Assembly: GCA_009103225.1 (NCBI GenBank)
Contig: RHPI01001715.1
Location: 1-64,000, forward strand
Source: Chlorokybus atmophyticus
Taxonomy: Eukaryota; Plantae; Mesostigma and Chlorokybus algae
Length of the DNA stretch: 64,000 bases
Direction of reading: 5' to 3'
A program made the translations under genes and the position numbers. Below, in pieces: positions 19,047 to 64,000 of this stretch (positions are counted from its first letter, which is position 1; every line of letters starts with the position of its first letter). The notes beneath the pieces are model-generated. The model was given only the letters and a program-made list of their open reading frames with translations, had not been told where the DNA came from and ran no database searches.

Positions 19047-21914
19047 GTGGTGGTATTGTTACGAAAAACCTCTTCAGGCGGCACTGGCGCCAACAACAAC
19101 AACGACAAGTGGAAAGGCAAGGGCATAGCCGGCCCCTTCGACAGCGGTCAAGCCGTGGGCAAGCATAAAGCCAAAGTTGCCTCCGTCGTCCAAGGCACCA
19201 CCAGCCTGCACGGTGAGCTCGATGGGCTTCTCGCAAAAATCGAGGATTTACGCAGCCGAAGAGATGAGCTGGAGGACCTCTTCAATTACGACCATCACGA
19301 TTACACCGCCTGCACTGCCACCCACTTCACACGATTCGTGGGTGCCACACGCCGCTCTCCTCCTTGCTCTCCTCCTCGCTCACCATCTCACCCACTACCA
19401 AGCTAGTCTTTTTTTCCACCGGCGCGACGGCCACGGGGTGGTGCATCCCCCACTAAAACCACCCCAGCTCCCACAGCTAAAACCACCCCATGGGGAGCTG
19501 GCCAGCTCCCTCACCAGAGCAGCTGCAAGAGCAATGACAAGCTGAGTGGCGTGCGGCCATGTTCGCTATGCGGCCGCTACAGGCCCCGGCAGCCTCACTG
19601 CCGGACCTACAGATGCTCCATCAAGATGCGTGCCGAGACGCATTGCAAGCTATTCGACACCAACCCCAGCGGCTGACTCCTTCACCTCCCTCCAACTTTC
19701 TCGCCAGTGTTGAAGGGCACCCACATGGATGGGGCCAACTGCAAATGGAATGGCGCAACCTTGTTTGAGGCTGCGGCCCACATCGGGACTTGCCAAAAGA
19801 CGCCAAGGAACTTTTCCATAGGACTTAGGAGTTTGTTAGATAGTTGGCCCTGCCCTGCTGCATCCCACTGCATCCCACCTGGGCACAGGGCAAGGAATCG
19901 TTCTCCATTCGGAAACGTGAGATTTTTATGACGCTTTGAATGTACTGTTAGGGGATGTGAAGGGGGCGAGTTGGGAAGGTCTGCAGCTCATCGACCCGAA
20001 TGGCATCGTGCGTCGTGTGTTTCCCGCGCTTGCCAACTACATCAGCGATTTGCAGGTAGTGGGCATGCATGGTTGTAACCGGATGCAGCCTGCCAGCAAA
20101 CAGTGCATGGAGGATGTTGTCAGTAGAACATCTGAGTTTGTCGTGTTGTAGGAGACTGCCACACTCGCACGCACTGTGTCGGGCAACCAAACACGACATC
20201 CTTGCGATGTTTGTCTCGTCACCAAATCAGATCTGTTGGAGATGGATGAGGACCGGGAATTGAGAACCGAGGCCTTCTACACACCAGCAATACGTCAGCT
20301 GCGGGCGGACCTGCATAGCGGTGTTAGGAATGCACGCCAGACAGCCAAGGCTTTTAAAGAGCAGCACTCCATGCATGTCGAGGAGGTAATGGTCAAATTA
20401 CCGGCATTCGTGAGGATGAATGGCTTTCCGTGAAACCAGGCAATGTGGTTTGGCAACAGAATGCACTGTGGGGTTGGCGACAGTCGCGGGTGCCGGGAGC
20501 TGACTGCTACTCTCGTCTTGCCCCTGACGCAATGCATGTGCTGGGAGGCATCATTGACCACCTGCTTGCTGCTGTGTACGACGCCGCGAAGGAACGAATG
20601 CGTCCATCCACGAGACAGATTCTGCAGGCCAGGCACGTCTTTGGTGTTGCTTTTGTGTTGAACACAAAAGCCAACGACACGTGCTCACGAGCAAATGTGC
20701 ACAGGCTGAATGCATGCAAGGCGACTCTGCGGGTTTCGCACTTTAAGGCACCCACAAGCACAGTAGATTTCTTCCTGTCCGACCACTCCTTTCAGGTGGT
20801 GGAGAAAGTGGCGGTGCTGCAGCTGCTGCCGGTCCTCGCAGACGGTTTGCTGCTCGACAGTGAGGGCAACGATTTCTTCACCATTGCTGCCGCATCGCTT
20901 GCCCAATGGAACAAGAAGTTGCTCAAAGCGCATGAACACACAAGAGACCCTGACCACAGCCGACAACGAGCTGGCTGCCTTCATAGCTGCAGTGTTGCAT
21001 CCGCTACTGTCGTCATATTCTGCACAGAAGTCAGGTTGGAAGATCGAGAAGATGCATCAACTCACTCATTTTGGGCCGGCAATTGTCAGCATTGGACACC
21101 CTGATTGGTTCAGCGCCAACCGCATGGAGCAGACGCACGCCCAATATATAAACGGTGGGCGCGTGGTGGCAACAACCGGGACTACCAGGCACGTATCCTG
21201 AAGGCATGCAGCTGTGCGGAATATGTGAGAGAGGATGGCATGGTCGTGGATCCCGAGATGTGCTCGGTCATGGCGCAGGCGCGGCAGCAGTGCTGTAATG
21301 TCATGGAGAAGACGGACAAGTTGCTACGGATGGAGGTGCTGACAAGGAGGGAGTCCAGCCCGTACTGGAGCGGATCTGCGCGTAGCCGCCAAGTCGCCTT
21401 GAAGACTCCATTCGCCGACAAGCTGCCTGCCACCCTGGACAGCTGGTTAAGGAGGGAACAGCTGGAGTTGGCCGACGGGTGGCGTGCTGTTCGCGTGGTG
21501 AATGGAGGCGCAGCGGTGTACATGACATCAGGAGTCAGCATGGCGCGCGCAACTGGGATGTTCCATGGGCGGCCTTGGTTCTCTACACTTGAGTTGGAAG
21601 GTGATGAGAACGGTGTGAACGTGACGTGGTGGGCTCAGGCACTCCTTTTTCTGCGCGTGGTGGTGTGGGGTGGTAGCGGCGAGCGCGTGTGGAAGGAGGT
21701 CGTGTTTGTCCGCTGGTACACGAAGCTGGATGTGACGAGCGACACAAAGTGCATCGCTCTGGAATGGGAAAAGCGTCGAGGCGGTCCACATCTCGATGTC
21801 GTGACTCTGGAGCAAGTAAAAGGCATTGTCCAGCTGCTCCCCATGTTTGACAAGGACAGCGCCCGTGTACAAGAGGGCAAGTATTGGGTGAACGTTCACT
21901 GCACTTCCACGTGA
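19047..21914 (+). pseudogene. Plavaka transposase, copy A (intron-containing, frameshifted)
   Basis: GLQLIDPNGIVRRVFPALANYISDLQ, HPCDVCLVTKSDL, DAMHVLGGIIDHLL, HEHT.ETL, WKIEKMHQLTHFG, FSANRMEQTH and C-terminal RATGMFHGRPWFS...VFVRWY match the Plavaka (PF18759-type) pattern as I recall it; frameshifts near ~19925 and ~20945; 5' start uncertain. Confidence 0.82.
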
Positions 21915-22114
21915 CACGTGTACTTGTCTCACTACTCTGAGTTTGGAGCATATCAGTCAGATAGGCATTGCTAATCGTATGCTAAGACTTTTGCATGTGG
22001 ACGTGTACAATGGGCAGCTGTCACTGCACAACTGTCACCACAATCGAATGTGCCATGCAACATTCAACAATTAGTCCGGCGTGTGGCATTAAGCATCAAT
22101 ACAGTGCACCACAC

Positions 22115-23663
22115 TCAAGCCTCATAGTTCCATGACACAGGAGGGTAGTCACAGCGCATATCCATTGTTTCAAGCATGAGACGCCCTATGCACTCCGCCA
22201 TTGCGGGAGGAACTGCATTCGCTATGGAAACGGCCGAGGTCATCCATGGCACTCCCAGCGCTGTTTGCCACGCAGCAATGCCGCCCCTGGTGCTTGGAAG
22301 GCCATAGACCGGGTACATCTGCTGTGGCGCGTTTGATGTCACGATTGTTTTCTTCGCGCTAGCGGATAGGTGCGGCGATAGCAGTCCAACTGCCTTGCCC
22401 GCATGTGAGCAGTGTGCTGGTGGGGTAGCTACCACTGGCTATGTCTCAAACAGACGGTGTCGGAAAGTTGATAGGCCAAATATCGTGCCACAAAGGGACA
22501 GATTGGGTCTGAATGAGGAAGCTGCTCCTGGCACATTCTCAATCACAAACTTGACCTGGCTTGCAAGCAGCAGACGTTGGACGAGCGGTATCATATCCTG
22601 GTGTCTCCAGGATGTGCCATGTGCCGCCCGTTGAGGTGCCGGGATAGCACCTGAATAGGCCTGGCATGGTGGACTGGCCCAGATGAGCTCGTACTCGCTC
22701 AGCTCTCCTGCACTCAGGGTGCATACATCGCGGTGTATGAAGGGCAGCGGGTACTCAGAGGAGGGACTTATGTCCATCCCGGTCACGTCAAAGCCTGCGT
22801 GGTATAGACCGACACTGGCACCGCCACCGCCGCTGAATAGGTCGAGTGCCCTTCGTCTGCGTGTGCGTCCCAGCTTGTTGTCAGATGGCGTGTATGTGGT
22901 CAAGGCTGGCCGTGGTGCTGGCCAGGGACAAACAATGATGCCGTCCGGGCTTACTTTGCGACTGACGTTCTCCCCTCCGGCGCGCAGAACATGGCGTGCC
23001 CCGTCAACTGATGTGTACGCGAATACGCTGTGCCCTTTGAAGTTGATGGTTTGTGGTCGATCACCGTCATCGAATACTATACGGTGCTGCCCTGCAAAGA
23101 CATTTTCCATTGCACCATGCATATATGATGCGTCCTCAATCTCGCACGCCACGAAGCGATGCTGACCTGACGCTTGCTTGAATGATTCCACAACGCCCGC
23201 ATACCATTCCCCATCCAGCGGCCAATGCACCATGACACTCACACCGATCAGCTGCTCGCATCCCAACTTAACTGCGTTCCGCAGCCGATGCAGTGCGCTG
23301 TCCAACGGTCGATGGTCTGCCTCCTCTACAGCGGCCAGGGGATGGAACTGCCCACGCCCACACCGTGCAAGACTGCTCTGAATGCGACGACAGCTTCAAC
23401 ATGCATGAAATAAGCATACGCCCAACATAACATGCAGTGATGCGTCGCGGTCCACTCTTTGGGATTACCTCCACAGCATCCACCACCTGTCCACTAACCA
23501 CATGTCCCGGTGTTGTCCATGTGAAGAAGCGCATGGGTTCCCCTCGCCACTCGAAGCATGAGCGCGAGCACGATTCGCACACGCACTGCACGCAATGGAA
23601 AAACTCGGGTTCCTTGCACAGCACTTGGCCGAGGCGGCATCCAAGCATCCCCCGCATCGTCAT
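22115..23663 (-). pseudogene. Cys-rich + Tudor + phage-type C5-cytosine DNA methyltransferase, copy A (one premature stop)
   Basis: Motif I RALDLFSGGGG, IV WASPPCQAYS, VI FVIENVPG, VIII LCGTIFGLSTFRHRLFET, X NAVPPAMAECIG; Tudor LIGVSVMVHWPLDGEWYAGVVESF..GQHRIVFDDGD with a 75-nt intron; upstream CRL..C..EFFHCVQCVCESCSRSCFEW; TAG at 22439-22441 where copy B has GAG. Confidence 0.88.
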
Positions 23664-24312
23664 TTTCTTCGAGCTTCCACAGAATCAGCTCGACGTGCCG
23701 TATGACATACAGCCACTGCCAGCCAAAGCATGCCAAGTACAGCTCGAATGGTTTTACTTGCCACCCAGTATGTTTGCTCAGGTAGTGGCACACATCTCGA
23801 CCCGCATTAGTCAACATCGACAGGTATATCTGCTGCAGCAGGTCGAACTTCCGCTCCGCAAATAGCTCTTGCACATTGCCGGGTTGCTGCGGCAGCAACA
23901 GCACCATCATATCGAGGACGGCAAGGGGCAACAACGTACTACGGATGGCCATATCGTGTATGGGTTCCAACCACGGCCAATCCCCAGAGGTCTGTTTAGA
24001 CCGCATTCTCCACGTTTGCTCCCACTTATTGCAAACTTTCGTCACCCACCTCGAGGCATGCCGCATGCGGTGATGCAGCGCGTCTTGGGCGTACTGTAGG
24101 GTGATCAACTCCTTTGCACTACGAGTCAGCCCCCCAAAGCGTCTGCGCGTCGGTGCTTTGAGCTTAGGCAGCTCGTGCCGCACCGGCTGTCTCTCTGGGC
24201 GATGCTGAGCAGCTACTTGACGCTGTAAACCCGCCTGTGCCTACTCAGGACACACAGTCAGCCCCAGTGAGGCTTCAAGGCGCTGTGCTTCTTCTAATGT
24301 TGTAACGATGCC

Positions 24313-27240
24313 TCACCTTTCCTTTTTTGGTCCTGTCAGCGTCCTTTGTTCCAACAACCTTCTTTTTTTTTTTTTGTCACCCTGCACATCCTGGCAGGCG
24401 CTCTCCGTGGCACTGTCACTCAGAGGAGGTAAGGCGTTATCTTCTTGCTCCACAGCCTTGCGCTTGTTGGTTGCCTCCCGTTCCTCCACGACCTCATGTT
24501 GCTTCATGAGGTCGAGCATGAAGCCTTTGTCTTTCAGCGCAGCTTTCAGGACACCTCGATCAATCTCTTTACCAACAAGACAGGCTGGGATCAATGTGGC
24601 AAGCTTAGAGGGAGAGGGCGAGCTACAGCTGCTTCTTGATGGAGATGCCTCCGGATGGTCAGAGTGCGGTGGCAAGTGAGTCTCCGCGGCAGGAAGGGAG
24701 GGTGCTGAATTGGGATTGCGAGCATGTGGCTGTGGTTGAGGGGAGGCAGGATGTGCAGAACACTCGGCTACTTCTTGCCTAGCACACGAAGGCGAGGCCT
24801 GAGGCGTTGGCGCAGCACTCTGGGTCACAGCCGGTGGTAGCGGGGAATTGGCAACGCCATTCCGCCACTCTCCGATCAGGTGTGTTACCTCCGGTGGCAC
24901 TTCATGCATAGGCCACGACCACTGTTCGGTGCTTGCAGGCTTGAGGAGCCAAAAGTGTGCTTCTGGCTCATCAGAAGCAGTGTTGCCCACCACCAGGACT
25001 GAGTTGGGGGCTTCTTTATTTCCAACCCACACTGCGCTGCCGGGCCGTGGCACCCACTCCCCATGCTCGCGCTGAACGGTCACGCAGCCAATCAACAAGC
25101 CCAGCTTGTTGGCAAACATGGTCATCTGCAGGTGCTCGACGTACACATCTTTTCTCCGCACGATCTGTCGCACCTTGGCCATGGCTAGGTCAATGTTGCA
25201 GTTGATATCAGCCAACATGGTCGCAGGCAGTTTGTCGTAATACTGCGCCATCTCTCCCGCGGCACCAGTGGCTCTGCAGAAGTCTAGAATTCTGCTCGCC
25301 ACGCCTGCATCGACAGCCTTAGCGGTGATTTTGCGGAGAGTGTGCCCCCTGTCGTCGTCGTCCATGGTGTCCAGCATGGCCCAAAATCTGCTCGAGCTGG
25401 GGCACTTGTGATCATCCAGGACACTTTGCGCTATGGATGGCCTGGCGCGAAATACACAATGGTAGAAGCAATTACCACCCGCTGGCGCATTGAAGTGGTC
25501 CCATGAGGCGAGCTGGCCACCTAGCATGACTGATGGCCGTATGCGGGTTGCGGCCAGCTCCTCTGATGACTCGCTGGCAGGTGGTGACCCCTGCTGCATG
25601 CGCATACAGCACTGACATGGTGTGTCCAACTGTGGACGGCAAGAGTCACAGTGACTGATAAAGTACCTGAGTTTGGGGCAGACTGCCGGCTTCAACTTGC
25701 AGCGGGTGGGGTAAGGTAGGTGCAGAAGCCACATCGGTTGTTGCATTGTGCTGTGGTCTCGCCGGTGGCGGCAAGAAGGATTGTTGCCCCGCAATCACCG
25801 GTGCTGCTCGTGGAGGAGATGGCAGTGCACGAAGGACTGGTGCCGCGGAAGGTGGTTGCGCTCTGGCTGGGAGGGGAGCAGGAGCTGCAGGTGAGACCAC
25901 TTGTACATGCAGCAAGGGGGGCTGTATACAGGACCCAGGATAAGATGGCTCACAATGTTGCAACAGGACGAATATAAGCTTATGCAGTGCCTGACGCATT
26001 GTTACCAAGGCACGAGCATAAAAGACAACGACTTACCTCAATGGTCCGTGGGCTGCATGGAGCAGGGGAAGCCATGGGGGCTGACAAGGTGGTATTGGCT
26101 GCACTCTCCCCGCCACCCTCGATGGCAGACTCGTCACGGAGCTCGTGAGCCATGGGCACATCATGCGCCACTGCCCCAATGGACATGTCGGGATTCAACA
26201 GGCCAACATGCATGTTAAACTGATGCCGCATTGCCGCCGCGCCCATCAGCAAGTGGGATTGAAGGACCAGTTGATGGGATTGAATCCAGGCTTGCATAGG
26301 AGCTCCAACAGGACCTAGTGCACTGTGGTGCTGTCAACCAATTACATGTGGGTTAGCTGCATGCTTGCGACACTGCAAATGCAATAGTCAACTGCGTCAC
26401 ACCGTTAGCAGTTGGTTGCTTCGAACAGTCACCTGCAGCATTGCTGCTTGATGCACGAATGATTGCATGGACTGCGTCATTGCTGGTTGATGCACTATTG
26501 GTTGAATGCCGGACGAATGGCCACGCGCTCCTGTGCTCAAGCCCAGCCTACTTCGTTTGGCACGCGCGCGCGCCTTCGCACGCTTACGCACATCCTAGCA
26601 TGCAAAGGTAGGCATGCATTGGAGCCGACATTGCAGTCAACATGCACAACGCGATTGGCAACAACATACCGCCGCCAAGCTCTGTCTATCTGCTCTTGCT
26701 TCCGCAATGTCGGCTTGACTGTAAGGTGGGTATGGGTGAATGGAGGCCTGCAGCCACACTACATATATCACATGGACTGCGCTAAAAAACAAATTGCTCT
26801 TGCAAGGAAATGCATGTGACTGTTGAGCGTACCTCTGCATTCCTTTGTGCTTGTTCCCACAGCCGCAATTGGTCCCGCATGGTTCTGACAAGGGGCTCTA
26901 AGGACTGCAGCTCTTGATCCAGTCCTTGTTGCAGAAAGCGAGCCACCAAGCAGCTCTCTGTGTGAAGATGGTCTTTAATGGCTTGCCTGCTGGTTTGTCC
27001 AATGTTGGTGATGCATGTTGGACAGCCCCATTGCTGACGCCTGCCACGATCCATAACGTGGCGACCGGTAGTAGCTGGCTTCGCTGCTTGAACTCTTACG
27101 ACCACAACTTCTCGCAAGATGTGCCACGCCGCCGCCGCCGCCGCTGCCTCCTCCGACTCCTGGTCCTCTGCCTCCTAGTCGAACCCAGGCCCATCAAGCC
27201 TGACATTCGACCCGTCATCGACCTGGTGCCCCTGCGTGCC
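24313..27240 (-). CDS. OTU-family cysteine protease (deubiquitinase-like) gene, copy A, multi-exon; may continue through 23700-24250
   Basis: OTU core ~24945-25500: FNAPAGGNCFYHCV (DGNCFY in copy B), LRKITAKAV, VYVEHLQMTMFANKLGLLI, His box EAHFWLLKP; upstream WGCPTCITNIGQTSRQAIKDHLHTESC (Zn-finger-like, ~26950-27030); downstream KRK/KKKKRR basic motifs. Exon structure 5' of 25800 uncertain. Confidence 0.7.
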
Positions 27241-27681
27241 ATCATCCGGCCATCAATGAAGCGTGTTTGGGTGAGTGCACGCTAACTCCCATTTGGGCTG
27301 ATCGAGTAATGCCTCTGTCGTACCATGGATGGTATGACAGAGCCATTGTACGGCAATCGCTGGGGTTGGACGAGAGATGCCTATGTCGTATCATAAATGT
27401 TACAACACAACTATTCGTACAACCATTGTTACCAATGGTTGTACGAAGCATGGATGGCACGAATGCATAAGTCGTACCATCAAGTATTAGTCGTACCATC
27501 AACCATAGGAGCAAGGACGCACTACAAGTGCGACTCTAGTGCGGGACTCTAAACGTTCAAAACCGCCTCATTTTCGTTTTCGCGCCTCGTACATTCGGGC
27601 GGGCCAACCGGCAGCGGCAGCGTTGGAGGCGGCAGCGCCACTATCAGCTAAACAGGCGGCACCCGACTATCAGTTGGAGAG

Positions 27682-29526
27682 ATGCCTCGTGGTCCATCCG
27701 TAAGTGCACCTCGTCGTGGAGGTCGGCGCCAGTTGTCCACATTGCCCCCAGTGTTCAACCAGGCAACCGTCGCCAACCAATCGCAGCAAGACCCCGCGCT
27801 AAGGCCCAGCACATTACAACAACTCCACCTGACACCGCAGTCGCAAGGGCAAGCTAGAATGCATGCGTTCTTGATGCACTGTGCACGTTGCTTCTTGCTC
27901 AACTTCTAACTTAGATGCTTGCTTCTTTCATGACTAGCACAGTGACTCACTACATGCGTTCTGGATACACTGTGCACGTTGTTCTTCTTTTGCAACTGTG
28001 AGGGTTGCATCTTTTATGGCTGGCAGCATGACTCATGTGGTTGTGCTTGCAGAGGGTCGATTGGAACCCCCAACCTCAACGCATTTGGCCGTGACGTGGC
28101 AACCTCGGCTGTCAGCAACCCTTCCCCAAGCAATTGGAAGATTGGCAACGAGGTAAGCACTGTGTGACACTGTGACACTGTGTGTATGCGTGTAACGGAT
28201 TGTTCTTCTGTGGACAGCATTTGCGAGATGCCGTCGTCAAAATCATAAACGGCCACTGGGTAGAGAGCCACGTTTATCCCAAGGAGGACACTATTCGTAA
28301 CGTCATGTGTCAGGTGCTATGAATGCTTCATGACCGCACTGCACCGTGACACTGACCAACCTGCCCGTAACAGGTAGTTGGCTTCGACCATGACAACGAG
28401 GCCGATGCGGCCAACTTCTATGAGGTGTACTGGACTCCCAAGGAGTGCCCCTTCCACTGGAGTGTCGCCCTGAAGAAAGCTACGCAGGTCCGGTCTGAGA
28501 ACGTCACCAAGATCAAGCATGTCCTTAAGAAGGAGTACAGGTGGACACTGTTTAACAGCGACAAGCGCAAGTGAGTTGGGTCCCTCACCACCATGTCTGC
28601 TATGCAACACTACCTTCTTACTCAGCCTCCATACACACGTACTCATCTCGCCTATTGTAACCGATTCAATCAGGCACATCGACGCCCTAATGGACCCCGA
28701 GACCCAAAAAGCCCAGATGCGCAACGCGCTCCAAAGTAAGTCACAGGCACTATTCTAGCCTGGTGCAGGCTCAACTTGAACTATCTATTTCGTGACTAAT
28801 GCCTTGTCGGTATGACTGTCGCAGACAAGTCATGGCGGAGATTGGAGGTGACCGACACTGCAGACCCGGAGCGGAGGAGATACATCCATGAATGGGGCAA
28901 TCCCATAATCTGGCAAATGATCGTGCAATGCTGGTCTTATGCCGTCACTACACCTGGTCGCCGGCAGCTGAAAGTCAACCACCTCGCATACCTGTTGCTT
29001 ACGGTGAGCACTTTGAACTCCATCATTTGCTAATGATGGAGTTCAGCAATTCAGGAATGCTGTAGCCCCAAACTACAGGCTTGCAGACGCGTTGCAGTGA
29101 ATATTGGCTTTCGATGCCACTAAGACATGCCTGTAAACTACGCAGGTGGAGCGCATCCTAAAGGGCAAGGATGGAGACCCTCTCCTAGCTCCCAGCATAG
29201 ACACACATGAAGAGTACCTCAGCGAAATCAACACCATGATCATGTCAATGAAGCGGGAGATGAGGCAACGGTACGCAGCCCTCCAGCCATTCACCCTTGT
29301 GAAACGCCGCACTGCATCTTGTGTCAAATACCTGAAAGATCCCAATCGGCGCCGGCCGCAAGAGACAGCAGCTCGTGACCCGCTCGCTGAGGCAGAAGCG
29401 GCATTTGATTGGCTGGCACAACCGTTTGAGGAGGAAGAGCAAGCTCCGGCGTCTCCTCCACAGGCCCCAGCGCGTGGTGCTTTGTTCCGTAATGACGAGA
29501 CCAGCGATGATGGAGAGGAGCTGTAG
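27682..29526 (+). CDS. Uncharacterised multi-exon passenger gene of the Plavaka element, copy A
   Basis: GT-AG-bounded open exons: HLRDAVVKIINGHWVESHVYPKEDTIRNVMCQ, VVGFDHDNEADAANFYEVYWTPKECPFHWSVALKKATQ, HIDALMDPETQKAQMRNALQ, KSWRRLEVTD..EWGNPIIWQMIVQCW, VERILKGKDG...SDDGEEL* (TAG 29524-29526); divergent from the OTU gene; no family recognised. Confidence 0.6.
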
Positions 29527-29904
29527 CGCAGTTGGTAGTCCGTTTAGCTGGTAGTGTACATAGCTACAAGGCTCTTGTGACTGAGTGTTGTGCATCTTAA
29601 ACCAGCTCAGTCAATCGTCATTATTCTCATGCACATCAGTACTTGCATCCCTATGATGTACAACGGAACTGCATTCGAGTCACATAATCAAACTACAAGC
29701 CTTGGGAAGTGACTGAGAGACACTGTACACATTTCAGGTACATGTACACAGCACAGGCACATAATAATGCTGGAAGTCAGTGACAGTCGCGTGTAGTCAA
29801 GCTATGCAAATACATATGACGACAGTTAGGCATTAGTCACCTTCAGTTGTTAAAGAATGCCTTTATTTTTGTCGATAATTACCTAGTTGGTGCTTGTGAA
29901 TTAG

Positions 29905-30200
29905 GCTTGGTCGCCTGCGCTGATCTGGTGTGTAACCTGCAGGTGCCTGTCACATAGGCTAAGTCACCTAAGTAAGACTGATGTGTAACTTACAGGTGCC
30001 CGTTGATTAGTTGTAGTCACCTAATAAGGCCTGATGTGTAACTAACAGTTGCCTGTAAATTACACAAAGTCATTTGTTAAGGCCTGATGTGTGACTAACA
30101 GGTGCCTGTTAATTATATATAGTCACCTGTTAAGGCCTGATAGGTAACTAATAGGCGCCTGTTAATTAGGCATAGTCAACTGTTAAAGACTAAATTGTAA
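29905..30200. repeat. Subterminal tandem array (~53-bp unit, ~5-6 copies), Plavaka copy A
   Basis: Unit approx. GGCCTGATGTGTAACTAACAGGTGCCTGTTAATTATATATAGTCACCTGTTAA, ending ~150 bp inside the terminus. Confidence 0.85.
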
Positions 30201-30351
30201 CAAAAAGGGCCTCATAGTAACGGAAGTTACTGTTAGGTCCCTGTATCAAGATTACAGGTGGCCTGAGCCACGACAATCTAAATTGATGTCCTCAGGTGCA
30301 CGGCCGTTGCCAATATTTAGTCGGCCGGCAGGGAAAACATATTGCGACGTG

Positions 30352-32954: not shown

Positions 32955-33029
32955 ACAACAGATCGTGTATCAGGGCATCACAATTACGAAGAGTACCCCA
33001 TGTACTCAAAATGTCATGGCATGTGCTCC

Positions 33030-39890: not shown

Positions 39891-39944
39891 ATTGTGGTTG
39901 ATGCCCAGAATGCAAGCCAGGGATGTTGCTGCTTTGGCCCGTTA

Positions 39945-40474
39945 TGTAACGGGAAGGTACATTACATTACCACAAATCGACCATAAAAGGACCAAGTCTC
40001 TTGTGGTCGAGTGGTTTGTGACATTGGTCATCGGAGCTTGAGACCCGGGTTCGATTCCTGCCTTGCACACGAATTCCGCGGTCGTTGTTTCTCGATCCAA
40101 TAACATCGTAAATGGTCACTTTATAAGTGCCATCATCGATGGGTCGCGACTTGCCTAATGGCAGTCGCGCCGAACTGACCAGTTCAGTCGGCGCGGCAGG
40201 GCGCGACCTGCCTACTGCGGCGACGCGCCCTGTGGGGCCAGCAGCGGAGCGCTATGCGCGCGCTGACCGGTATGGGCCTAGATTGGCCGGTCCTTGGGTG
40301 GTGGGGCCGGTGACCGACCCTAACAAACCCCTTGGGTAATTCCCCAGCTGACCGGGCAGCTGCCGAGGACGTCAGCGTTCTTAAGTGGGGGGGAATGTAA
40401 CGGGAAGGTACATTACGTTACCACAAATCGACCATAAAAGCACCAAGTCTTTTGTGGTCGAGTGGTTTGTGACA
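39945..40474 (+). mobile_element. TRIM-2 (530 bp; 79-bp LTRs)
   Basis: LTRs 39945-40023 and 40396-40474; same PBS, internal sequence and PPT as TRIM-1; TSD CGTTA both sides. Confidence 0.93.
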
Positions 40475-52965: not shown

Positions 52966-54605
52966 GCGACGCCGCTATGGTGTCCGATACATTGAGGCAA
53001 GGTGCAGTTGGTGAAGAGGATTACCAGGCACAGGGGGGGAGGTGACCGGAAAGGTTGCCACGCGGGCCGCAATGGCTTGCGCGAGCCGGCGGCGCTGTGC
53101 GGGGTCTTGCTTGGCTAATTCACGAGGAGCCTCGGTTTGTGGAGCGGATGTGTTGCCACTCACTCTAGAACGTTAAGTACTTTGCGCAGCATCAATGGTG
53201 TTCAACTCCGCATGTGCTGTTTGTGTAAGTCCCCTGAAGAACGAGTGCAAGGATGCCATATAATTGTATGAGTAAATATTCTGTGTGCTTCTTAATGACG
53301 CAGCGCACACGTCTCTGCATCATCCTCATCATAGCGAACATTGCGGTCTATTAATTCCGCATCACACTCATCTTGCCAGTGCCGAAGGCCGTCGTCGTAG
53401 CCGAGCTGATGTGCGGTCAATGACGACCGTGTTCAGTTGGACATCCATGGGGGAAACCGAAACCAATAATCAGCTGCCTTGCTGGTGAGGCGAGGGAGTC
53501 TTACTCTAGTGTAGTCTTCCAACCGTGTGACAGGACTGACAAAGAGGTCAGGATGGAGGGTGTCATCTGACTCTGATGAGCCATACAATGAGGCGGATGA
53601 GCCGAGAATCAGGGATGCCTTGTCCAAGTGCTCGGAGTATATTTCATGGTCCCTCGCGGCGTGTGATCTGCATGCGCAGCTGGGTTATGCCCTGAGTGCA
53701 AGCACCTCCCCAGCCACATGGTCGGCTGGGGAAGGGGGTGGTGTTAAGCAGCAATTCCTATGGCAGGGTGCTTGCGTATGGGTGGGGTAGGCAGTCAGGC
53801 AACAATTCTTCTTCATAATGGGCGCCGTATTGAGCAGCACCTGCGCCCCCACCCCCCCTCAACTCGAGCACGAAGTGTGTCGTGCAAACGTTTGCGTGAA
53901 GGCAATTCAGCGGCTCTGCGAGCACCATGTAGCAACTTGGACGTCAGAAGCAAGTACAACTCCCTCTGGATCGTGGACTCTTGCCGCTGCAACCAGTCGC
54001 GCACATCATGATCGGCTTGCGTTTGCGAAGTCCACTGTGAAGCGGTATATTTGTTAGCTCAAAGCGGCATTGTTGGCTAGCACCAATGGCTGAGTGCAAG
54101 TCTTCATCTTTTTCAAAGGTGCATGGTTCTTTGGACGACAAGTAACGTGGCAGGAAGAGCCTGGTGGCCTGGCGTGCATGTGCGGCTCTGGCAATGGTGA
54201 GCGGCATGTTCTGATGCACCTGCTACTCGTATGGCCTGCATGGCGACCTTTAAAAGAAGCAATGTTGGGTTCCAGCGAAGCCAGATATGTGTCTCTCCTT
54301 CAAATCGCTTTTCAGCTCGAGCTCCAAGCTAGCTGAGGCGATGTAGTTGAAGTGATGTGCGCAAACGTGTACACGCGCGCGTGTACTGCATTGCCCCGCG
54401 GGAGTTAATGCTCATGTTGCCTTGCGCAGCTTGAAGTTGCGCGATCTCTCTCGTATACGTCGCAATATGTTTTCCCTGTCGGCCGACTAACTATTGGCAA
54501 CGGCCGTGCACCTGAGGACACTAATTTAGACTGTCGTGGCTCAGGCCACCTGTAATCTTGATACAGGGACCTAATAGTAACTTCCGTTACTATGAGGCCC
54601 TTTTT

Positions 54606-54905
54606 GTTACAATTTAGTCTTTAACAGTTGACTATGCCTAACTACCAGGCGCCTGTTAGTTACCTATCAGGCCTTAACAGGTGACTTTATATAATTAACA
54701 GGCACCTGTTAGTCACACACCAGGCCTTAACAAATGACTTTGTGTAATTTACAGGCAACTGTTAGACATCAGGCCTTATTAGGTAACTACAACACATCAA
54801 CGGGCACCTGTAAGTTACACATCAGTCTTACTTAGGTAACTCAGCCTATATGACAGGCACCTGCAGGTTACACACCAGTCCAGCGCAGGCGACTCAGCCT
54901 AATTC
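54606..54905. repeat. Subterminal ~53-bp tandem array, Plavaka copy B
   Basis: Reverse complement of the array at 29905-30200. Confidence 0.85.
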
Positions 54906-55269
54906 ACAAGCACCAACTAGGTAATTATCGACAAAATAAGGCATTCTTTAACAACTGAAGGTGACTACTGCCTAACTGTCGTCATATGTATTTGCATAGC
55001 TTGACTACACGCGACTGTCACTGACTTTCAGCATTGTTATGTGCCTGTGCTGTGTACATGTACCTGAAATGTGTACAGTGTCTCTCAGTCACTTACCAAG
55101 GCTTGTAGTTCGATTATGTGACTCGAATGCAATTCTGTTGTATATCATAGGGATGCAAGTATTGATGTGCATGAGCATAATGACGATTGACTGAGCTGGT
55201 TTAAGATGCACAACACTCAGTCACAAGAGCCTTGTAGCTATGTACACTACCAGCTAAACGGACTACCAA

Positions 55270-56301
55270 CTGCGCTACAGCTCCTCTCCATCATCGCTTT
55301 GCTTGTTATTACGGAACAAAGCACCATGCGCTGAGGCCTGTGGAGGAGACGCCGGAGCTTGCTCTTCCTCCTCAAACGGTTGTGCCAGCCAATCATATGC
55401 CGCTTCTCCTCAGCGAGCGGGTCACGAGCTGCTATCTCTAGCGGCCGGCGCCAATTGGGACATGCTTGATTCTCAAGGACAAGCTTGATCTTGGTGGCGT
55501 AGCTTTCTTCAGGGCGACACTCCAATGGAAGGGGCACTCCTTGGGAGTCCAGTACACCTCATGGAACTTGGCCGCATCGGCCTCGTCGTCATGGTCGAAG
55601 CCAACTACCTTTCACGGGCCAGGTTGGTCAGTGTCACGGTGCAGTGCGGTCATGAAGCATTCACAGCACCTGACACATGACGTTACGAATAGTGTCCTCC
55701 TTGGGATAAACGTGGCTCTCTACCCAGTGGCCGTTTATGATTTCAACGACGGCATCTCGCAAATGCTGTCCACAGAAGAACAATCCGTCACACACATACA
55801 CACAGTGTCACAGTGTTACACAGTGCTTACCTCGTTGCCAATCTTCCACTTGCTTGGGGATAGGTTGCTGACGGCCGAGGTTGCCACGTCACGGCCAAAT
55901 GCGTTTGGGTTTGGGGTTTCAATCGACCCTCTGCAAGCACAACCACATGAGTCATGCTGCCAGCCATGAAAAATGCAACCCTCACAGTTGCAAAAGAAGA
56001 ACAACGTGCACAGTGTATCCAGAACGCATGCAGTGAGTCACTGTGCTAGTCATGAAAGAAGCAAGCATCCAAGTTAGAAGTTGAGCAAGAAGCAACGTGC
56101 ACAGTGCATCAAGAACGCATGCAGTCTAGCTTGCCCTTGCGACTGCGGTGTCAGGTGGAGTTGTTGTGATGTGCTGGGCGTTAGCGCGAGGTCTTGCTGC
56201 GATTGGTTGGCGACGGTTGCCTGGTTGAACACTGGGGGCAATGTGGACAACTGGCGCCGACCTCCACGACGAGGTGCACTTACGGATGGACCACGAGGCA
56301 T
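55270..56301 (-). pseudogene. Copy B of the unknown passenger gene, internally deleted (~0.8 kb)
   Basis: Matches A 27682-28520 and 29340-29526; junction near 55460-55500 with rearranged filler. Confidence 0.7.
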
Positions 56302-56861
56302 CTCTCCAACTAATAGTCGGGTGCCGCCTATTTAGCTGATAGTGGCGCTGCCGCCTCCAACGCTGCCGCCGGCGGTTGGCCCGCCCGAATGTACGAGGCG
56401 CGAAAACGAAAATGAGGCGGTTTTGAACGTCTAGAGTCCCGCACTAGAGTCGCACTTGTAGTGCGTCCTTGCTCTTATGGTTGATGGTACNTTTTATGCA
56501 TTCGTGCCATCCATGCTTCGTACAACCATTGGTAACAATGGTTGTGTCGTAACATTTATGATACGACAGAGGCATCTCTCGTCCAACCCCAGCGATTGCC
56601 GTACAATGGCTCTGTCGTACCATCCATGGTACGACAGAGGCATTGCTCGATCAGCCCAAATGGGAGTTAGCGTGCACTCACCCAAACACGCTTTATTGAT
56701 GGCCGGATGATGGCACGCAGGGGCACCAGGTCGATGACGGGTCGAATATCTGGCTTGATGGGCCTGGGTTCGACTAAGAGGCGGAGGCGGCGGCGGCGGC
56801 GTGGCACATCTTGCGAGAAGTTGTGGTCGTAAGAGTTCAAGCAGCGAAGCCAGCTACTACC

Positions 56862-57685
56862 TGTTGTGATTCGGACACTACTAACCATGCATGGAGTTGG
56901 TGCAAGCACAAGTACACACACTCTACCAGAGCATACACACAAGGCTGATCCAAAAGGCTTTCTAAGGATTACAACAAAGTCATACCGCGGGCTTTTATAC
57001 CCGGCAGTTCTGCACCTGTCTATTCTAGAAGCCACCACGACTTCTACACTCAACCGATTCCTGCGCTCTAAGTTGCACCACGTAGCTACTTTCAAGAGCT
57101 TTCCAACAAGCTATGACACGCGCCATACAATGACGTAACCACCGAGCTACAACGTTTCTTCTACAGCGCCTGGAAGTCTTCAGACTCCGGACTCGACTCC
57201 GCGCCTGGAACCTTCTCGACTGAAGTCCTCGCCTGGACCTTTCTCGACTGGAACCTTCTCGCGCCTGAATCTTCTCGCGGCTATTCTTATCCACAGGGCA
57301 AGCTGACCGGATACAAGAATATCCTCAACACTCCCACGCGGGCAGCTTGGCCTTTAACACCTTCGATGCCAACTCCTTGCGTACTTATGCGCGACGAACT
57401 CCCACGCCATCCTTTGCTCTTCCAACCATCGTGAAGACACTTCCAGCAGCTCTCATGAGCGTCTCCTTGAAGCTCTTCACTTGCACACCCTTGTTAAAAC
57501 TCTCATGGTCATTTGCATGTGCTCCCACGTGCTCACTCTTGGCAACGTCCTGCACAACACCACCACCATGCTTCTCCTTCTTGTCCTTGATGATGCCAAC
57601 GCCCTCTATAGCTCCCACGGGCTCAGGAACTGCATCTTCAACCTTCTTGAAACCCTCAGCAACCTCCACACGTGGAATCACAACA
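56862..57685. mobile_element. Solo-LTR-like insertion (824 bp)
   Basis: Perfect 11-bp inverted ends TGTTGTGATTC / GAATCACAACA; 5-bp TSD CTACC; absent at the equivalent site in copy A (~27065); internal short CGCCTGGA/TTCTCGACTG repeats. Confidence 0.85.
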
Positions 57686-59143
57686 CTACCGGTCCCGACG
57701 TCATGGATCATGGCAGGCGTCAGCAATGGGGCTGTCCAACATGCATCACCAACATTGGACAAACCAGCAGGCAAGCCATTAAAGACCATCTTCACACAGA
57801 GAGCTGCTTGGTGGCTCGCTTTCTGCAACAAGGAGTGGATCAGGAGTTGCAGTCCTTGGAGCCCCTTGTCAGAACCATGCGGGACCAATTGCGGCTGTGG
57901 GAACAAGCACAAAGGAATGCAGAGGTACGCTCAACAGTCACATGCATTTCCTTGCAAGAGCAATTTGTTTTTTAGCGCAGTCCATGTGATATATGTAGCG
58001 TGGCTGCAGGCCTCCATTCACCCATACCCACCTTACAGTCAAGCCGACATTGCGGAAGCAAGAGCAGATAGACAGAGCTGGGCGGCGGTATGTTGTTGCC
58101 AATCTCGTTGTGCATGTTGACTGCAATGTCGGCTCCAATGCATGCCTACCTTTGCATGCTAGGATGTGCGTGAGCGTGCGAAGTCGCGCGCGCGTGCCGA
58201 ACGAAGTAGGCTGGGCTTGAGCACAGGAGCGCGTGGCCATTTGTCCGGCATTCAACCAATAGTGCATCAACCAGCAATGACGCAGTCCATGCAATCATTC
58301 GTGCATCAAGCAGCAATGCTGCAGGTGACTGTTCGAAGCAACCAACTGATGACGGTGTGACGCAGTTGACTATTGCAATTGCAGTGTCGCAAGCATGCAG
58401 CTAACCCACATGTGATTGGTTGACAGCACCACAGTGCATTAGGTCCTGTTGAAGCTCCTATGCAAGTCTGGATTCAATCCCATCAACTAATCCTTCAATC
58501 TCACTTGCTGATGGGCGCGGCAGCAATGCGGCATCAATTTAACATGCATATTGGCCTGTTGAATCCCGACAGGTCCATTGGGGCAGTGGCGCATGATGTG
58601 CCCATGGCTCACGAGCTTCGTGACGAGTCTGCCATCGAGGGTGGCGGGGAGAGTGCAGCCAATACCACCTTGTCAGCCCCCATGGCTTCCCCTGCTCCAT
58701 GCAGCCCACGGGCCATTGAGGTAAGTCGCTGTCTTTTATGCTCGTGCCTTGGTAACAATGCGTCAGGCACTGCATAAGCTTATATTCGTCCTTTGCAACA
58801 TTGTGAGCCATCTTATCCTGGGTCCTGTATACAGCCCCCCTTGCTGCATGCACAAGTGGTCTCACCTGCAGCTCCTGCTCCCCTCCCAGCCAGAGCGCAA
58901 CCACCTTCCGCGGCACCAGTCCTTCATGCACTGCCATCTCCTCCACGAGCAGCACTAGTGATTGCGGGGCAACAATCCTTCTTGCCGCCACCGGCGAGAC
59001 CACAGCACAATGCAACAACCGATGTGGCTTCTGCACCTACCTTACCCCACCCGCTGCAAGTTGAAGCCGGCAGTCTGCCCCAAACTCAAGTACTTTATCA
59101 GTTACTGTGACTCTTGCCGTCCACAGTTGGACACCATGTGAGT

Positions 59144-59370
59144 TGTTACAGCCCACTTGACCACAAAAGACTTGGTGCTTTTATGGTCGATTTGTGGTAA
59201 TTTGATGTACCTTCCTGTTACATTACAACAACGACCGCGGAATTCGTGTGCAAGGCAGGAATTGAACCCGGGTCTCAAGCTCCGATACCAATGTCACAGC
59301 CCACTCGACCACAAAAGACTTGGTGCTTTTATGGTCGATTTGTGGTAATTTAATGTACCTTCCCGTTACA
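59144..59370 (-). mobile_element. TRIM-3, minimal 227-bp derivative
   Basis: LTRs 59292-59370 and 59144-59222; PBS TTGGTATCGGAGC; 69-bp internal region without PPT; TSD TGAGT; empty site in copy A at ~25620. Confidence 0.92.
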
Positions 59371-60999
59371 TGAGTGCTGTATGCGCATGCAGCAGGGGTC
59401 ACCACCTGCCAGCGAGTCATCAGAGGAGCTGGCCGCAACCCGCATACGGCCATCAGTCATGCTAGGTGGCCAGCTCGCCTCATGGGACCACTTCAATGCG
59501 CCAACGGATGGTAATTGCTTCTACCATTGTGTATTTCGCGCCAGGCCATCCATAGCGCAAAGTGTCCTGGATGATCACAAGTGCCCCAGCTCGAGCAGAT
59601 TTTGGGCCATGCTGGACACCATGGACGACGACGGCAGGGGGCACACTCTCCGCAAAATCACCGCCAAGGCTGTTGATGCAGGCGTGGCGAGCAGAATTCT
59701 AGACTTCTACAGAGCCACTGGTGCCGCGGGAGAGATGGCGCAATATTACGACAAACTGCCTGCGACCATGTTGGCTGATGTCAATTGCAACATTGACCTA
59801 GCCATGGCCAAGGTGCGACAAATCGTGCGGAGAAAAGATGTGTACGTCGAGCACCTGCAGATGACCATGTTTGCCAACAAGCTGGGCTTGTTGATTGGCT
59901 GCGTGACCGTTCAGCGCGAGCATGGGGAGTGGGTGCCACGGCCCGGCAGCGCAGTGTGGGTTGAAAATAAAGAAGCCCCCAACTCAGTCCTAGTGGTGGG
60001 CAACACTGCTTCTGATGAGCCAGAAGCACACTTTTGGCTCCTCAAGCCTGCAAGCACCGATTAGTGGTCGTGGCCTATGCATGAAGTGCCACCGGAGGTA
60101 ACACACCTGATCGGAGAGTGGCGGAATGGCGTTGCCAATTCCCCGCTACCACCGGCTGTGACCCAGAGTGCTGCGCCAACGCCTCAGGCCTCGCCTTCGT
60201 GTGCTAGGCAAGAAGTAGCCGAGTATTCTGCACATCCTGCCTCCCCTCAACCACAGCCACATGCTCGCAATCCCAATTCAGCACCCTCCCTTCCTGCCGC
60301 GGAGACTCACTTGCCACCGCACTCTGACCATCCGGAGGCATCTCCATCAAGAAGCAGCTGTAGCTCGCCCTCTCCCTCTAAGCTTGCCACATTGATCCCA
60401 GCCTGTCTTGTTGGTAAAGAGATTGATCGAGGTGTCCTGAAAGCTGCGCTGAAAGACAAAGGCTTCATGCTCGACCTCATGAAGCAACATGAGGTCGTGG
60501 AGGAACGGGAGGCAACCAACAAGCGCAAGGCTGTGGAGCAAGAAGATAACGCCTTACCTCCTCTGAGTGACAGTGCCACGGAGAGCNGTGACCCAAAAAA
60601 AAAAAGAAGGTTGTTGGAACAAAGGACGCTGACAGGACCAAAAAAGTTAAGGTGAGGCATCGTTACAACATTAGAAGAAGCACAGCGCCTTGAAGCCTCA
60701 CTGGGGCTGACTGTGTGTCCTGAGTAGGCACAGGCGGGTTTACAGCGTCAAGTGGCTGCTCAGCATCGTCCAGAGAGACAGCCGGTGCGGCACGAGCTGC
60801 CTAAGCTCAAAGCACCGACGCGCAGACGCTTTGAGGGGCTGACTCGTAGTGCAAAGGAGTTGATCACCCTACAGTACGCCCAAGACGCGCTGCATCACCG
60901 CATGCGGCATGCCTTGAGGTGGGTGACGAAAGTTTGCAATAAGTGGGAGCAAACGCGGAGAATGCGGTCTAAACAGACTGGTGTGGGCGTGGGCAGTTC

Positions 61000-62229
61000 C
61001 ATCCCCTGGCCGCTATAGAGGAGGCAGACCATCGACCGTTGGACAGCGCACTGCATCGGCTGCGGAACGCAGTTAAGTTGGGATGCGAGCAGCTGATCGG
61101 TGTGAGTGTCATGGTGCATAGGCCGCTGGATGGGGAATGGTATGCGGGCGTTGTGGAATCATTCAAGCAAGCGTCAGGTCAGCATCGCTTCGTGGCGTGC
61201 GAGATTGAGGACGCATCATATATGCATGGTGCAATGGAAAATGTCTTTGCAGGGCAGCACCGTATAGTATTCAATGACGGTGATCGACCACAAACCATCA
61301 ACTTCAACGGGCACAACGTATTCGCGTACACATCAGTTGACGGGGCACGCCATGTTCTGCGCGCCGGAGGGGAGAACGTCAGTTGCAAAGTAAGCCCGGA
61401 CGGCATCATTGTTAGTCTTTGGCCAGCACCACGGCCAGCCTTGACCATATACACGCCATTTGACAACAAGCTGGGACGCACACGCAGACCAAAGGCACTC
61501 GACCTATTCTGCGGCGGTGGCGGTGCCAGTGTCGGTCTATACCACGCAGGCTTTGACGTGACCGAAATGGACATAAGTCCCTCCTCTGAGTACCCGCTGC
61601 CCTTCATACACCGCGATGTATGCACCCTGAGTGCAGGAGAGCTGAGCGAGTACGAGCTGATCTGGGCCAGTCCATCATACCAGGCCTATTCAGGTGCTAT
61701 CCCGGCACCTCAACGGGCGGCACATGGCACATCCTGGAGACACCAGGATATGATACCGCTCGTCCGACGTCTGCTGCTTGCAAGCCAGGTCAAGTTTGTG
61801 ATTGAGAATATGCCAGGAGCAGCTTCCTCATTCAGATTCAATCTGTCCCTGTGTGGCGCGATGTTTGGCCTATCAACTTTCCGACACCGTCTGTTTGAGA
61901 CAGAGCCAGTGGTAGCTACCCCACCAGCACGCTGCTCGCACGCGGGCAAGGCAGTTGGACTGTTATCGCCGCACTTGTCCGCTAGCGCGAAGAAGACAAT
62001 TGTGACATCAAACGCGCCACAGCAGATGTACCCGGTCTATGGCCTTCCAAGCACCAGGGGCGGCATTGCTGCGTGGCAAACAGCGCTGGGAGTGCCATGG
62101 ATGACCTCGGCCGTTTCCATAGCGAATGCAGTTCCTCCCGCAATGGCGGAGTGCATAGGGCGTCTCATGCTTGAAACAATGGATATGCGCTGTGACTACC
62201 CTCCTGTGTCATGGAACTATGAGGCTTGA
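61000..62229 (+). CDS. Tudor + phage-type C5-MTase, copy B (open frame; catalytic PC changed to SY; Cys-rich 5' exon deleted)
   Basis: KALDLFCGGGG, WASPSYQAYS (TAC 61678-61680 replaces TGC), VIENMPG, RHRLFET, NAVPP; 75-nt phase-1 intron 61178-61252 in the Tudor; 625-bp deletion just upstream (A 23365-23989, junction ~60979). Confidence 0.85.
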   Translation, partial: HPLAAIEEADHRPLDSALHRLRNAVKLGCEQLIGVSVMVHRPLDGEWYAGVVESFKQASGQHRFVACEIEDASYMHGAMENVFAGQHRIVFNDGDRPQTINFNGHNVFAYTSVDGARHVLRAGGENVSCKVSPDGIIVSLWPAPRPALTIYTPFDNKLGRTRRPKALDLFCGGGGASVGLYHAGFDVTEMDISPSSEYPLPFIHRDVCTLSAGELSEYELIWASPSYQAYSGAIPAPQRAAHGTSWRHQDMIPLVRRLLLASQVKFVIENMPGAASSFRFNLSLCGAMFGLSTFRHRLFETEPVVATPPARCSHAGKAVGLLSPHLSASAKKTIVTSNAPQQMYPVYGLPSTRGGIAAWQTALGVPWMTSAVSIANAVPPAMAECIGRLMLETMDMRCDYPPVSWNYEA

Positions 62230-62432
62230 GTGTGGTGCACTGTATTGATGCTTAATGCCACACGGCGGACTGATTGTTGAATGTTGCATGGATCATTCGA
62301 TTGTGGTGACAGTTGTGCAGTGACAGCTGCCCGGTATTGTACACGTCCACATGCAAAAGTCTTAGCATACGATTAGCAATGCCTAACTGACTGATATGCT
62401 CCAAACTCAGAGTAGTGAGACAAGTACATGTG

Positions 62433-64000
62433 TCACGTGGAAGTGCAGTGAACGTTCACCCAATACTTGCCCTCTTGTACACGGGCGCTGTCCTTGTCAA
62501 ACATGGGGAGCAGCTGGACAATGCCTTTTACTTGCTCCAGAGTCACGACATCGAGATGTGGACCGCCTCGACGCTTTTCCCATTCCAGAGCGATGCACTT
62601 TGTGTCGCTCGTCACATCCAGCTTCGTGTACCAGCGGACAAACACGACCTCCTTCCACACGCGCTCGCCGCTACCACCCCACACCACCACGCGCAGAAAA
62701 AGGAGTGCCTGAGCCCACCACGTCACGTTCACACCGTCCTCATCACCTTCCAACTCAAGTGTAGAGAACCAAGGCCGCCCATGGAACATCCCAGTTGCGC
62801 GCGCCATGCTGACTCCTGATGTCATGTACACCGCTGCGCCTCCGTTCACCACGCGAACAGCACGCCACCCGTCGGCCAACTCCAGTTGTTCCCTCCTCAA
62901 CCAGCTGTCCAGGGTGGCAGGCAGCTTGTCGGCAAATGGAGTCTTCAAGGCGACTTGGCGGCTACGCGCAGATCCGCTCCAGTACGGGCTGGACTCCCTC
63001 CTTGTCAGCACATCCATCCGTAGCAACTTGTCCGTCTTCTCCATGACATTACAGCACTGCTGCCGCGCCTGCGCCATGACCGAGCGCATCTCGGGATCCA
63101 CGACCATGCCATCCTCTCTCACATATTCCGCACAGCTCCATGCCTTCAGGATACGTGCCTGGTAGTCCCGGTTGTTGCCACCACGCGCCCACCGTTTGAT
63201 ATTTTGGGCGTGCGTCTGCTCCATGCGGTTGGCGCTGAACCAATCTGGGTGTCCACTGCTGACAATTGCCGGCCCAAAATGAGTGAGCTGATGCATCTTC
63301 TCGATCTTCCAACCTGACTTCTGTGCAGAATATGACGACAGTAGCGGATGCAACACTGCAGCTTTGAAGGCAGCCAGCTCGTTGTCGGCTGTGGTCAGGG
63401 TCTCTCTTGTGTGTTCATGCGCCTTGAGCAACTTCTTGTTCCACTGGGCAAGCGATGCGGCAGCAATGGTGAAGAAATCGTTGCCCTCACTGTCGAGCAG
63501 CAAACCGTCTGCGAGGACCGGCAGCAGCTGCAGCACCGCCACTTTCTCCACCACCTGAAAGGAGTGGTCGGACAGGAAGAAATCTACTGTGCTTGTGGGT
63601 GCCTTGAAGTGCGAAACCCGCCGAGTCGCCTTGCATGCATTCAGCCAATGCACAGCTGCTCTTGAGCACGTGTCGTTGGCTTTTGTGTTCAACACAAAAG
63701 CAACACCGAAGACGTGCCTGGCCTGCAGAATCTGTCTCGTGGATGGACGCATTCGTTCCTTCGCGGCGTCGTACACAGCAGCAAGCAGGTGGTCAATGAT
63801 GCCCCAGCACATGCATTGCGTCAGGGGCAAGACGAGAGTAGCAGTCAGCTCCCGGCACCCGCGACTGTCGCCAACCCCACAGTGCATTCTGTTGCCAAAC
63901 CACATTGCCCGGTTTTACGGAAAGCCATTCATCCTCACGAATGCCGATAATTTGACCATTACCTCCTCGACATGCATGGAGTGCTGCTCTTTGAAAGCCT
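62433..64000 (-). CDS. Plavaka transposase, copy B, 3' portion (5' part outside window)
   Basis: Open frame 62433-63905 with IIDHLL, HEHTRETL, KMHQLTHFG, SANRMEQTH, RATGMFHGRPW; lacks A's ~20945 frameshift but has a small indel near DAMH (~63805). Confidence 0.82.

Follow-up and report, generated by a model that had tools for sequence, protein, structure and literature searches.

A Plavaka/CACTA-type DNA transposon carries an accessory gene with a Tudor domain and a compact phage-family C5 methyltransferase

Transposon-borne methylases, retroelements that combine a methylase with a reader domain, and an adenine methylase in a Plavaka element are already known (PMC5890265, PMC12730594, PMC8885841, PMC11244446 and bioRxiv preprints); the comparisons made here hold for the available portions of these and the other sources cited. 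EpiLTRs (bioRxiv 10.64898/2026.05.21.726589) resemble our locus in that a mobile element encodes a cytosine methyltransferase and a histone reader. However, they are LTR retrotransposons with a chromodomain, a DNMT that is sister to DNMT4, and an adenine methylase in addition, whereas our element is a DNA transposon with a Tudor domain in the same frame as a phage-family enzyme. SymbioLINE-Dnmt, SymbioDIRS-Dnmt3 and the charophyte Dnmt3 retrotransposons (PMC5890265) also carry a C5 methyltransferase, for which self-methylation has been proposed; they differ in being retroelements with mostly host Dnmt3-derived enzymes, and no reader domain was found in the available text. The giant Plavaka PAG2 of the red alga Bostrychia (bioRxiv 10.1101/2025.02.11.637652) has chromatin-modifying accessory genes, including a DNA methylase, but that enzyme acts on N6-adenine and is joined to a SET writer, and the available part of the preprint contains neither a C5 enzyme nor a Tudor domain. 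TET/JBP-bearing fungal DNA transposons, Plavaka among them (PMC12730594), are CMCT transposons with a cytosine-modifying enzyme; theirs is an eraser, whereas ours is of the writer type. The N4CMT protein of bdelloid rotifers (PMC8885841) is a foreign methyltransferase fused to a histone reader, a "histone-read-DNA-write" design, but it makes 4mC, uses a chromodomain, and is a domesticated host gene that marks transposons. Orphan DNMTs in print generally lack companion domains (PMC12344493). In our literature search, neither a phage-type C5 enzyme fused to a Tudor and carried by a DNA transposon nor an MBD-insert family came up; members of the clade could be present in supplementary DNMT trees (PMC12344493 and bioRxiv preprints). 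A preliminary description of this locus had claimed that it is without precedent in Plavaka. Given the red-algal methylase, we narrow this claim to the combination of a Tudor domain with a phage-type C5 enzyme in a DNA transposon, which is apparently undescribed.

The DNA that we analyzed, referred to here as the window, is a stretch of 64,000 nucleotides from Chlorokybus atmophyticus. It contains two inverted copies of an element of at least 10 kb: copy A at 20348-30350 and copy B, which is truncated by the end of the window. They share 92-97% identity in five blocks. In both, a transposase and the Tudor-methyltransferase gene lie tail to tail in the same order, in agreement with the earlier view that the gene is transposon-borne. 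The transposase matches the Pfam Plavaka family at E 1.4e-4 and 21.7 bits, under the curated cut-off of 26.3, and its Atlas neighbors at 0.95 include a Plavaka cluster. By definition, CMCT transposases have a C(2)C and an H(3-4)H motif ahead of their last Glu (PMC12730594), and both can be read from translations of the window transposase. In copy A, putative introns lie at 20056-20151 and 20386-20439, and no 5′ part of the transposase was recognized. The single visible end of the element, at 30350 in copy A and 54457 in copy B, is not clearly of the CA..TG or TGT..ACA type; a search for terminal inverted repeats of these types with a 2-5 bp target duplication found no partner or left terminal repeat in the window. 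The locus is a multicopy Plavaka/CACTA-type DNA transposon that carries a Tudor-plus-methyltransferase accessory gene.

Features of the element and of its accessory gene, with positions in the window
Feature	Positions	Strand	Remarks
Transposase, Plavaka/CACTA-type (CMCT), C(2)C and H(3)H motifs	19921..21914	+	Frameshifted in copy A
Compact C5 cytosine methyltransferase domain, copy A	22115..22850	-	Motif I 22846, catalytic Cys 22666, ENV 22540, R-x-R 22462, motif X 22219
Tudor domain, RDM15/PDS5C type	23020..23263	-	PDB 7DE9 match
Putative intron, 75 nt, GTCAGC..TTTGCAG	23092..23166	-	In frame, stop-free; degenerate tandem duplicate of next 75 nt
Putative intron, 91 nt, GTAATC..TTCAG	23378..23468	-	Joins Cys-rich frame to Tudor frame, phase 0
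Cys-rich exon	23469..23644	-	No family assigned; 5′ part lost in copy A
Deletion junction of copy A	23644..23648	.	Several hundred extra bases in other copies
Upstream coding exon	23649..24234	-	Likely same gene; in copy A, frame differs from that of Cys-rich exon
Long ORF, weak OTU-protease-like Cys motif	24317..25794	-	Candidate 5′ exon via 82-nt intron 24316-24235
Subterminal tandem repeats and end common to copies A (30350) and B (54457)	29925..30350	.	Copy comparison
Copy B, inverted	54457..64000	+	Tudor-methyltransferase frame 60973-62229 open, but without catalytic Cys or pocket Trp
Transposase frame of copy B	63914-62433	-	

We then considered the enzyme. C5 motifs I, IV (SPPCQ), VI (ENV), VIII (R-x-R) and X had been reported in a compact domain, and we located all of them, in this order, in the frame of copy A; copy B is without the PC. 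Copy A keeps Cys244, which is present in 65 of 66 aligned rows, along with E286, R312 and R314. Pfam DNA_methylase (PF00145) matches at E 7e-6, and the phage profile phrog_363 matches over the whole domain at E 2.3e-25, with 301 of the 316 matching phage records covering at least 80% of it. Mycobacteriophage Sheen gp59 and Gordonia phage Kamaru gp76 are examples of this family, whose 30 listed phage rows show 35-39% identity over 91-96% of the domain, but the phage enzymes stand alone and form a sub-clade separate from ours. The remark that the domain has almost no target recognition domain is borne out: the loop between motifs VIII and X is 76 aa long, compared with 60-65 aa in six plain relatives. 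A structure model built from copy B and 20 relatives (pLDDT 86.8) aligns with M.HhaI over 222 positions (Z 18.0, rmsd 3.9), indicating an M.HhaI-type fold. The model matches host DNMTs with a similar Z, but structural identity to them is only 11-20%, and solved DNMT2 and DNMT1 give profile E values of at least 1e-4, compared with 35-41% identity to phage-type proteins. Judged by similarity alone, this is a C5-fold enzyme of a compact phage family, unlike the host DNMT1, DNMT3, CMT and DRM enzymes, as had been claimed. Formation of 5mC is its likely, predicted activity; our literature searches found no published activity for this compact phage C5 family. Residues 302, 313 and 331 of P0001 (Cys, His and His), near the target loop, are conserved in 54-60 of the 66 family rows and could form a metal site.

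Ahead of the methyltransferase lies the segment described as a PDS5/MSH6-like Tudor domain, and this assignment holds. Of 16 matches in the PDB, 7DE9 ranks first (E 1.4e-5) and Tudors of 53BP1 come next. In copy A, a single stop-free frame on the minus strand, 23395-22442, spans the Tudor-like segment and the first part of the methyltransferase; it meets an in-frame TAG (22441-22439) ahead of motif X and then runs on to 22115. The Tudor and methyltransferase exons plausibly form one gene, as had been proposed. Pfam Tudor families match weakly (two matches, E 0.10 and 0.12), Atlas gives 0.78 for the Tudor region, and a single-sequence fold of it is uninformative (pLDDT 38.9). When the Tudor exon was used in a word search, none of 8 candidates matched. 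In the available account of 7DE9, the Tudor of Arabidopsis RDM15/PDS5C binds H3K4me1 via W616, Y623, Y641, D643 and D645, and H3R2 via Glu647 (PMC8184781). RDM15 differs in being a host RdDM factor without a methyltransferase. With the 75-nt segment skipped, W616, Y623, D643 and D645 are kept in the window Tudor and Y641 is replaced by Phe, the pocket positions mapped from the alignment being Trp 23224, Tyr 23203, Phe 23074, Asp 23068 and Asp 23062. The aromatic cage with two Asp residues appears only when this segment is skipped or looped out. Since Glu647 is replaced by Pro, the mark bound may differ from that of RDM15.

The gene probably extends further upstream. Its start had been placed near 23663, and this is not where it begins. 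Contigs assembled from two public runs, X1, which may be the source sample, and X3, from another study, depart from the window at 23644 and return at 23648 with at least 363 and at least 168 extra letters, so copy A has lost sequence at this junction and the gene likely has more exons upstream. Downstream of the junction, the codon model prefers the frame of the Cys-rich exon (+9.1 versus +2.2 bits), for which the best Pfam match is a RanBP zinc finger at E 0.18. The 91-nt intron that joins this exon to the Tudor frame is firmer than the 75-nt one because the frame changes across it and it has a stop inside. Exon 23649-24234 has no Pfam or PHROG match. The long ORF beyond it matches viral OTU domains in the PDB at E 0.9, which makes its OTU-like motif a weak lead only; in copy B, the corresponding OTU-like ORF lies upstream of the gene at 59354-60655 on the plus strand. 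Both exons may belong to the Tudor-methyltransferase gene. The ORF is out of phase with the next exon in copy A, and an extra base at 24364 is present in most of the X3 depth and in all of the X5 depth. Contigs of run X5, which is RNA only by guess, are unspliced across the 23166 donor (by 15 nt) and across most of 24316-24235; we give this no weight for or against splicing.

Sequence and structure comparisons establish that the gene is linked to the transposase, that Tudor and methyltransferase share a frame, that the enzyme has C5 motifs and a C5 fold, and that the reader segment matches Tudor domains. With a probability of about 0.5, we propose that the product of intact copies is a C5 methyltransferase that is guided by its Tudor and would mark cytosines within or close to methyl-H3 chromatin, benefiting the element. 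The enzyme would have come from a phage-family sub-lineage already adapted to eukaryotic chromatin, as its relatives with an MBD insert, one of them in a giant-virus genome, suggest. A host Tudor would have taken over the targeting role, and splicing out the 75-nt segment would rebuild the methyl-lysine pocket. We predict that the protein binds methylated histone H3 and methylates cytosines close by. The histone mark read would be H3K4me1, which in land plants lies on gene bodies. The short target loop would give loose sequence specificity. Marked new copies may then resemble tolerated host chromatin, a benefit of the kind proposed for DNMT-bearing retrotransposons.

A different role for the same gene is rather unlikely, but fits some of the data. 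The protein could be a targeting or anti-silencing hub whose Tudor steers the element or the transposase to marked chromatin. Its methyltransferase fold would then bind cytosines, flip them or carry out other C5 chemistry, and leave no lasting 5mC pattern. Chromodomain-guided insertion is known for chromoviruses (bioRxiv 10.64898/2026.05.21.726589, available part), and the upstream exons suggest a larger, multidomain protein with a weak OTU-like motif. The cytosines of the element also show no motif-specific decay: we looked for a footprint of self-methylation and found no element-specific motif in the C-to-T differences between copies. C/T differences between A and B affect 7.6-7.7% of TCG and TCA compared with 1.0% of GCA (p 6e-7), and a control repeat has the same TC bias (6/9), which is likely host-wide. 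Against this role, copy A keeps the SAM-binding motif, the catalytic Cys, ENV and R-x-R, and the accessory gene is separate from the transposase and convergent with it.

Both copies of the gene are broken. Copy A has the premature TAG and the deletion junction near the start of the Tudor; in copy B, SPPCQ has become SPSYQ, the pocket Trp has become Arg, and the counterpart of 23989-23365 is missing. Between the two we counted 8 synonymous and 23 nonsynonymous or stop changes. They are decaying, in a pattern like that of neutral decay. These changes, together with the deletion and the likely upstream frameshift of copy A, are what would be expected if a captured viral gene and host exons were passive cargo, decaying and with no current function. 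We consider this unlikely because the lesions are private to each copy. The stop at 22441 is absent from copy B and is a sense codon in all of the depth of X1 and X3. Moreover, although identity between the enzyme and its kin has fallen to about 40%, its invariant residues are retained, as is the pocket of the Tudor. In our 39-row tree, the window enzyme sits on a branch of length 0.91, and the retention of its features over such a branch points to long purifying selection. An X1 contig, 20956-23472, spans the transposase, methyltransferase and Tudor with no gap listed within the gene. It has 36 differences, 13 of them beyond those listed, and we found no copy that is intact end to end. The 349 X3 contigs on the element stretch fall into four likeness bands (126, 140, 53 and 30), which suggests many copies of mixed age.

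A further alternative concerns the 75-nt segment of the Tudor, a domain in which a eukaryotic intron had been described. If the segment is left unspliced, a Tudor with a duplicated hairpin would bind another ligand or none, and the enzyme would be unguided. In favor of this, the segment is in frame and without a stop, scores as coding (+8.4 bits), and duplicates its neighbor with 8 of 25 residues alike, the sole such window among 70,700 pairs. Its boundaries and composition say otherwise. It begins with GT and ends in TTTGCAG, and its GC content is 0.49 compared with 0.57-0.60 in the flanking exons; its donor, GTCAGC, is also found at the start of an intron in a host gene, at 2018. In the alignment with 7DE9, query residues 3-40 pair with chain residues 8-45 and query residues 61-71 with chain residues 41-51. 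This offset change of 25 codons is the length of the GT..AG segment 23166-23092, and once it is skipped the fit to RDM15 is gapless. Duplication of an AGGT site is, furthermore, a recognized route of intron gain. Taken together, the segment is probably an intron, a conclusion that draws on its ends and on the RDM15 fit, and an unspliced Tudor is correspondingly improbable. The 75-nt tandem duplication of the Tudor hairpin (23167-23018, minus strand) is a possible case of intron gain by this route.

To place the enzyme among its relatives, we searched by words and exhaustively. The top word match (P0002), at 196 bits the best of 461 matches among 1,794 candidates, has an MBD inside its target loop. 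The exhaustive search gave 3,267 matches, of which the best 150 are listed. In a domain scan of 30 representatives of these 150, chosen as long or two-stretch matches, 3 had an MBD, 1 had a zf-CW, and none had a match to a Tudor family. The six proteins of the MBD group share an "IP..R..G..W.H" stretch with the window enzyme, and its C-terminal tail is also found in five of them. Nine more relatives have a longer insert that, compared together with its flanks, matches the insert of the MBD group (HH probability 94%, E 1e-7), and a further relative with a longer insert lies in a giant-virus MAG (L236:9887-10987); its giant-virus label rests on the GVMAG name of the contig, and the ATPase of this contig has no A32 match in Pfam. 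An MBD-like insert is absent from the target loop of both window copies. Scans of viral contigs found no genomic context for the six closest kin, and in the generic scans, with 80 loci each listed, the top matches were plain short enzymes.

The tree (LG+G4) was built from 39 rows of the 66-row set; copy B was excluded, as were two long rows, the 20 random ones and 4 more. It places the window enzyme as sister to the MBD group (94/81) within a 20-row clade (95/93), in which 3 rows have no insert and 17 rows form a group (92/88). The same wider clade appears in a quick tree of all 66 rows (SH-aLRT 95). In a FastTree of 285 rows, the window enzyme groups with four of the six MBD rows and one actinophage-type row, and the MBD group is split. 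The preliminary description had called the enzyme actinophage- or prophage-type. The phage family stands, but a direct actinophage or prophage source does not: in the 39-row set, grouping the window enzyme with seven actinophage-group rows (Sheen, Kamaru and actinobacterial ones) as one clade is rejected by the AU test (p 0.0025). Its nearest kin are not actinophage-like, as had been thought, but the MBD-insert relatives, including that of the giant-virus MAG. Two other placements inside the 20-row clade are not rejected (AU p 0.26), and the MBD insert may have been lost or never gained (AU p 0.257). The ancestry of the enzyme likely passed through giant viruses, as this phylogeny suggests. 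That the locus is instead an integrated giant-virus remnant with the transposase as a chance neighbor is very improbable: the relative in a giant-virus MAG, a Pithovirus protein as the best viral fold match and the entry of viral orphan DNMTs into eukaryote genomes (PMC12344493, available text) would suit it, but no viral marker gene was found among the ORFs scanned, the introns are of the spliceosomal type, and the gene was copied together with the transposase.

A more specific history is tentative. A small phage methyltransferase may have become a read-write enzyme of eukaryotic chromatin by gaining an MBD in its target loop in giant viruses and their kin, which would allow a 330-aa protein to read and spread 5mC; in this transposon the MBD would then have been swapped for an H3K4me1-reading Tudor, and the enzyme would now write 5mC on gene-body chromatin. 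The product would be a mobile, minimal, reader-programmable de novo methyltransferase. If true, eukaryotes would have a route to new histone-guided 5mC writers that leads from phages through giant viruses to DNA transposons, and this would be a case of a transposon exploiting a gene-body histone mark. This methyltransferase lineage occurs with three different readers, MBD, zf-CW and Tudor, and its catalytic core, about 240 aa long, could serve as a compact part for epigenome editing if it tolerates the exchange of readers.

Several further observations concern the family and the window. P0002, P0136, P0137, P0138 and P0141, the P0139 group and the giant-virus MAG protein of L236 are compact C5 methyltransferases whose target-recognition loop holds an inserted MBD or MBD-like domain; one has a CW zinc finger. 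P0132 and P0133 are long proteins in which a diverged methyltransferase of the same family lies ahead of retroelement-like sequence, with reverse transcriptase and RNase H matches in P0133; they are possibly a separate capture. In the window, the intron-rich host gene at about 1150-3910 is presumably a plastid-type glycerate kinase, and domain-family scans gave no family match for it. It lies among LINE, Gypsy and CACTA debris. The window is eukaryotic, and this gene together with the plant-type Tudor suggests a green-lineage host. A fragment with an ILENV motif at 52024-52611 (minus strand), which we take to resemble a piece of a retrotransposon DNMT, had no match in Pfam, NCBIfam or PDB. A second CACTA-like element (31260-34559, minus strand) adjoins copy A, with DUF4218 at E 3e-8 and a piece of a Ulp1 protease at E 0.005. 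Within the element, another intron-bearing gene lies before the subterminal repeats at 28371-29526 (plus strand). About 800 bases of copy B (56860-57680) are absent from copy A, and a short repeat family occurs at 35067-35599, 39943-40475 and 59144-59371, with two 80-nt pieces within copy B only.
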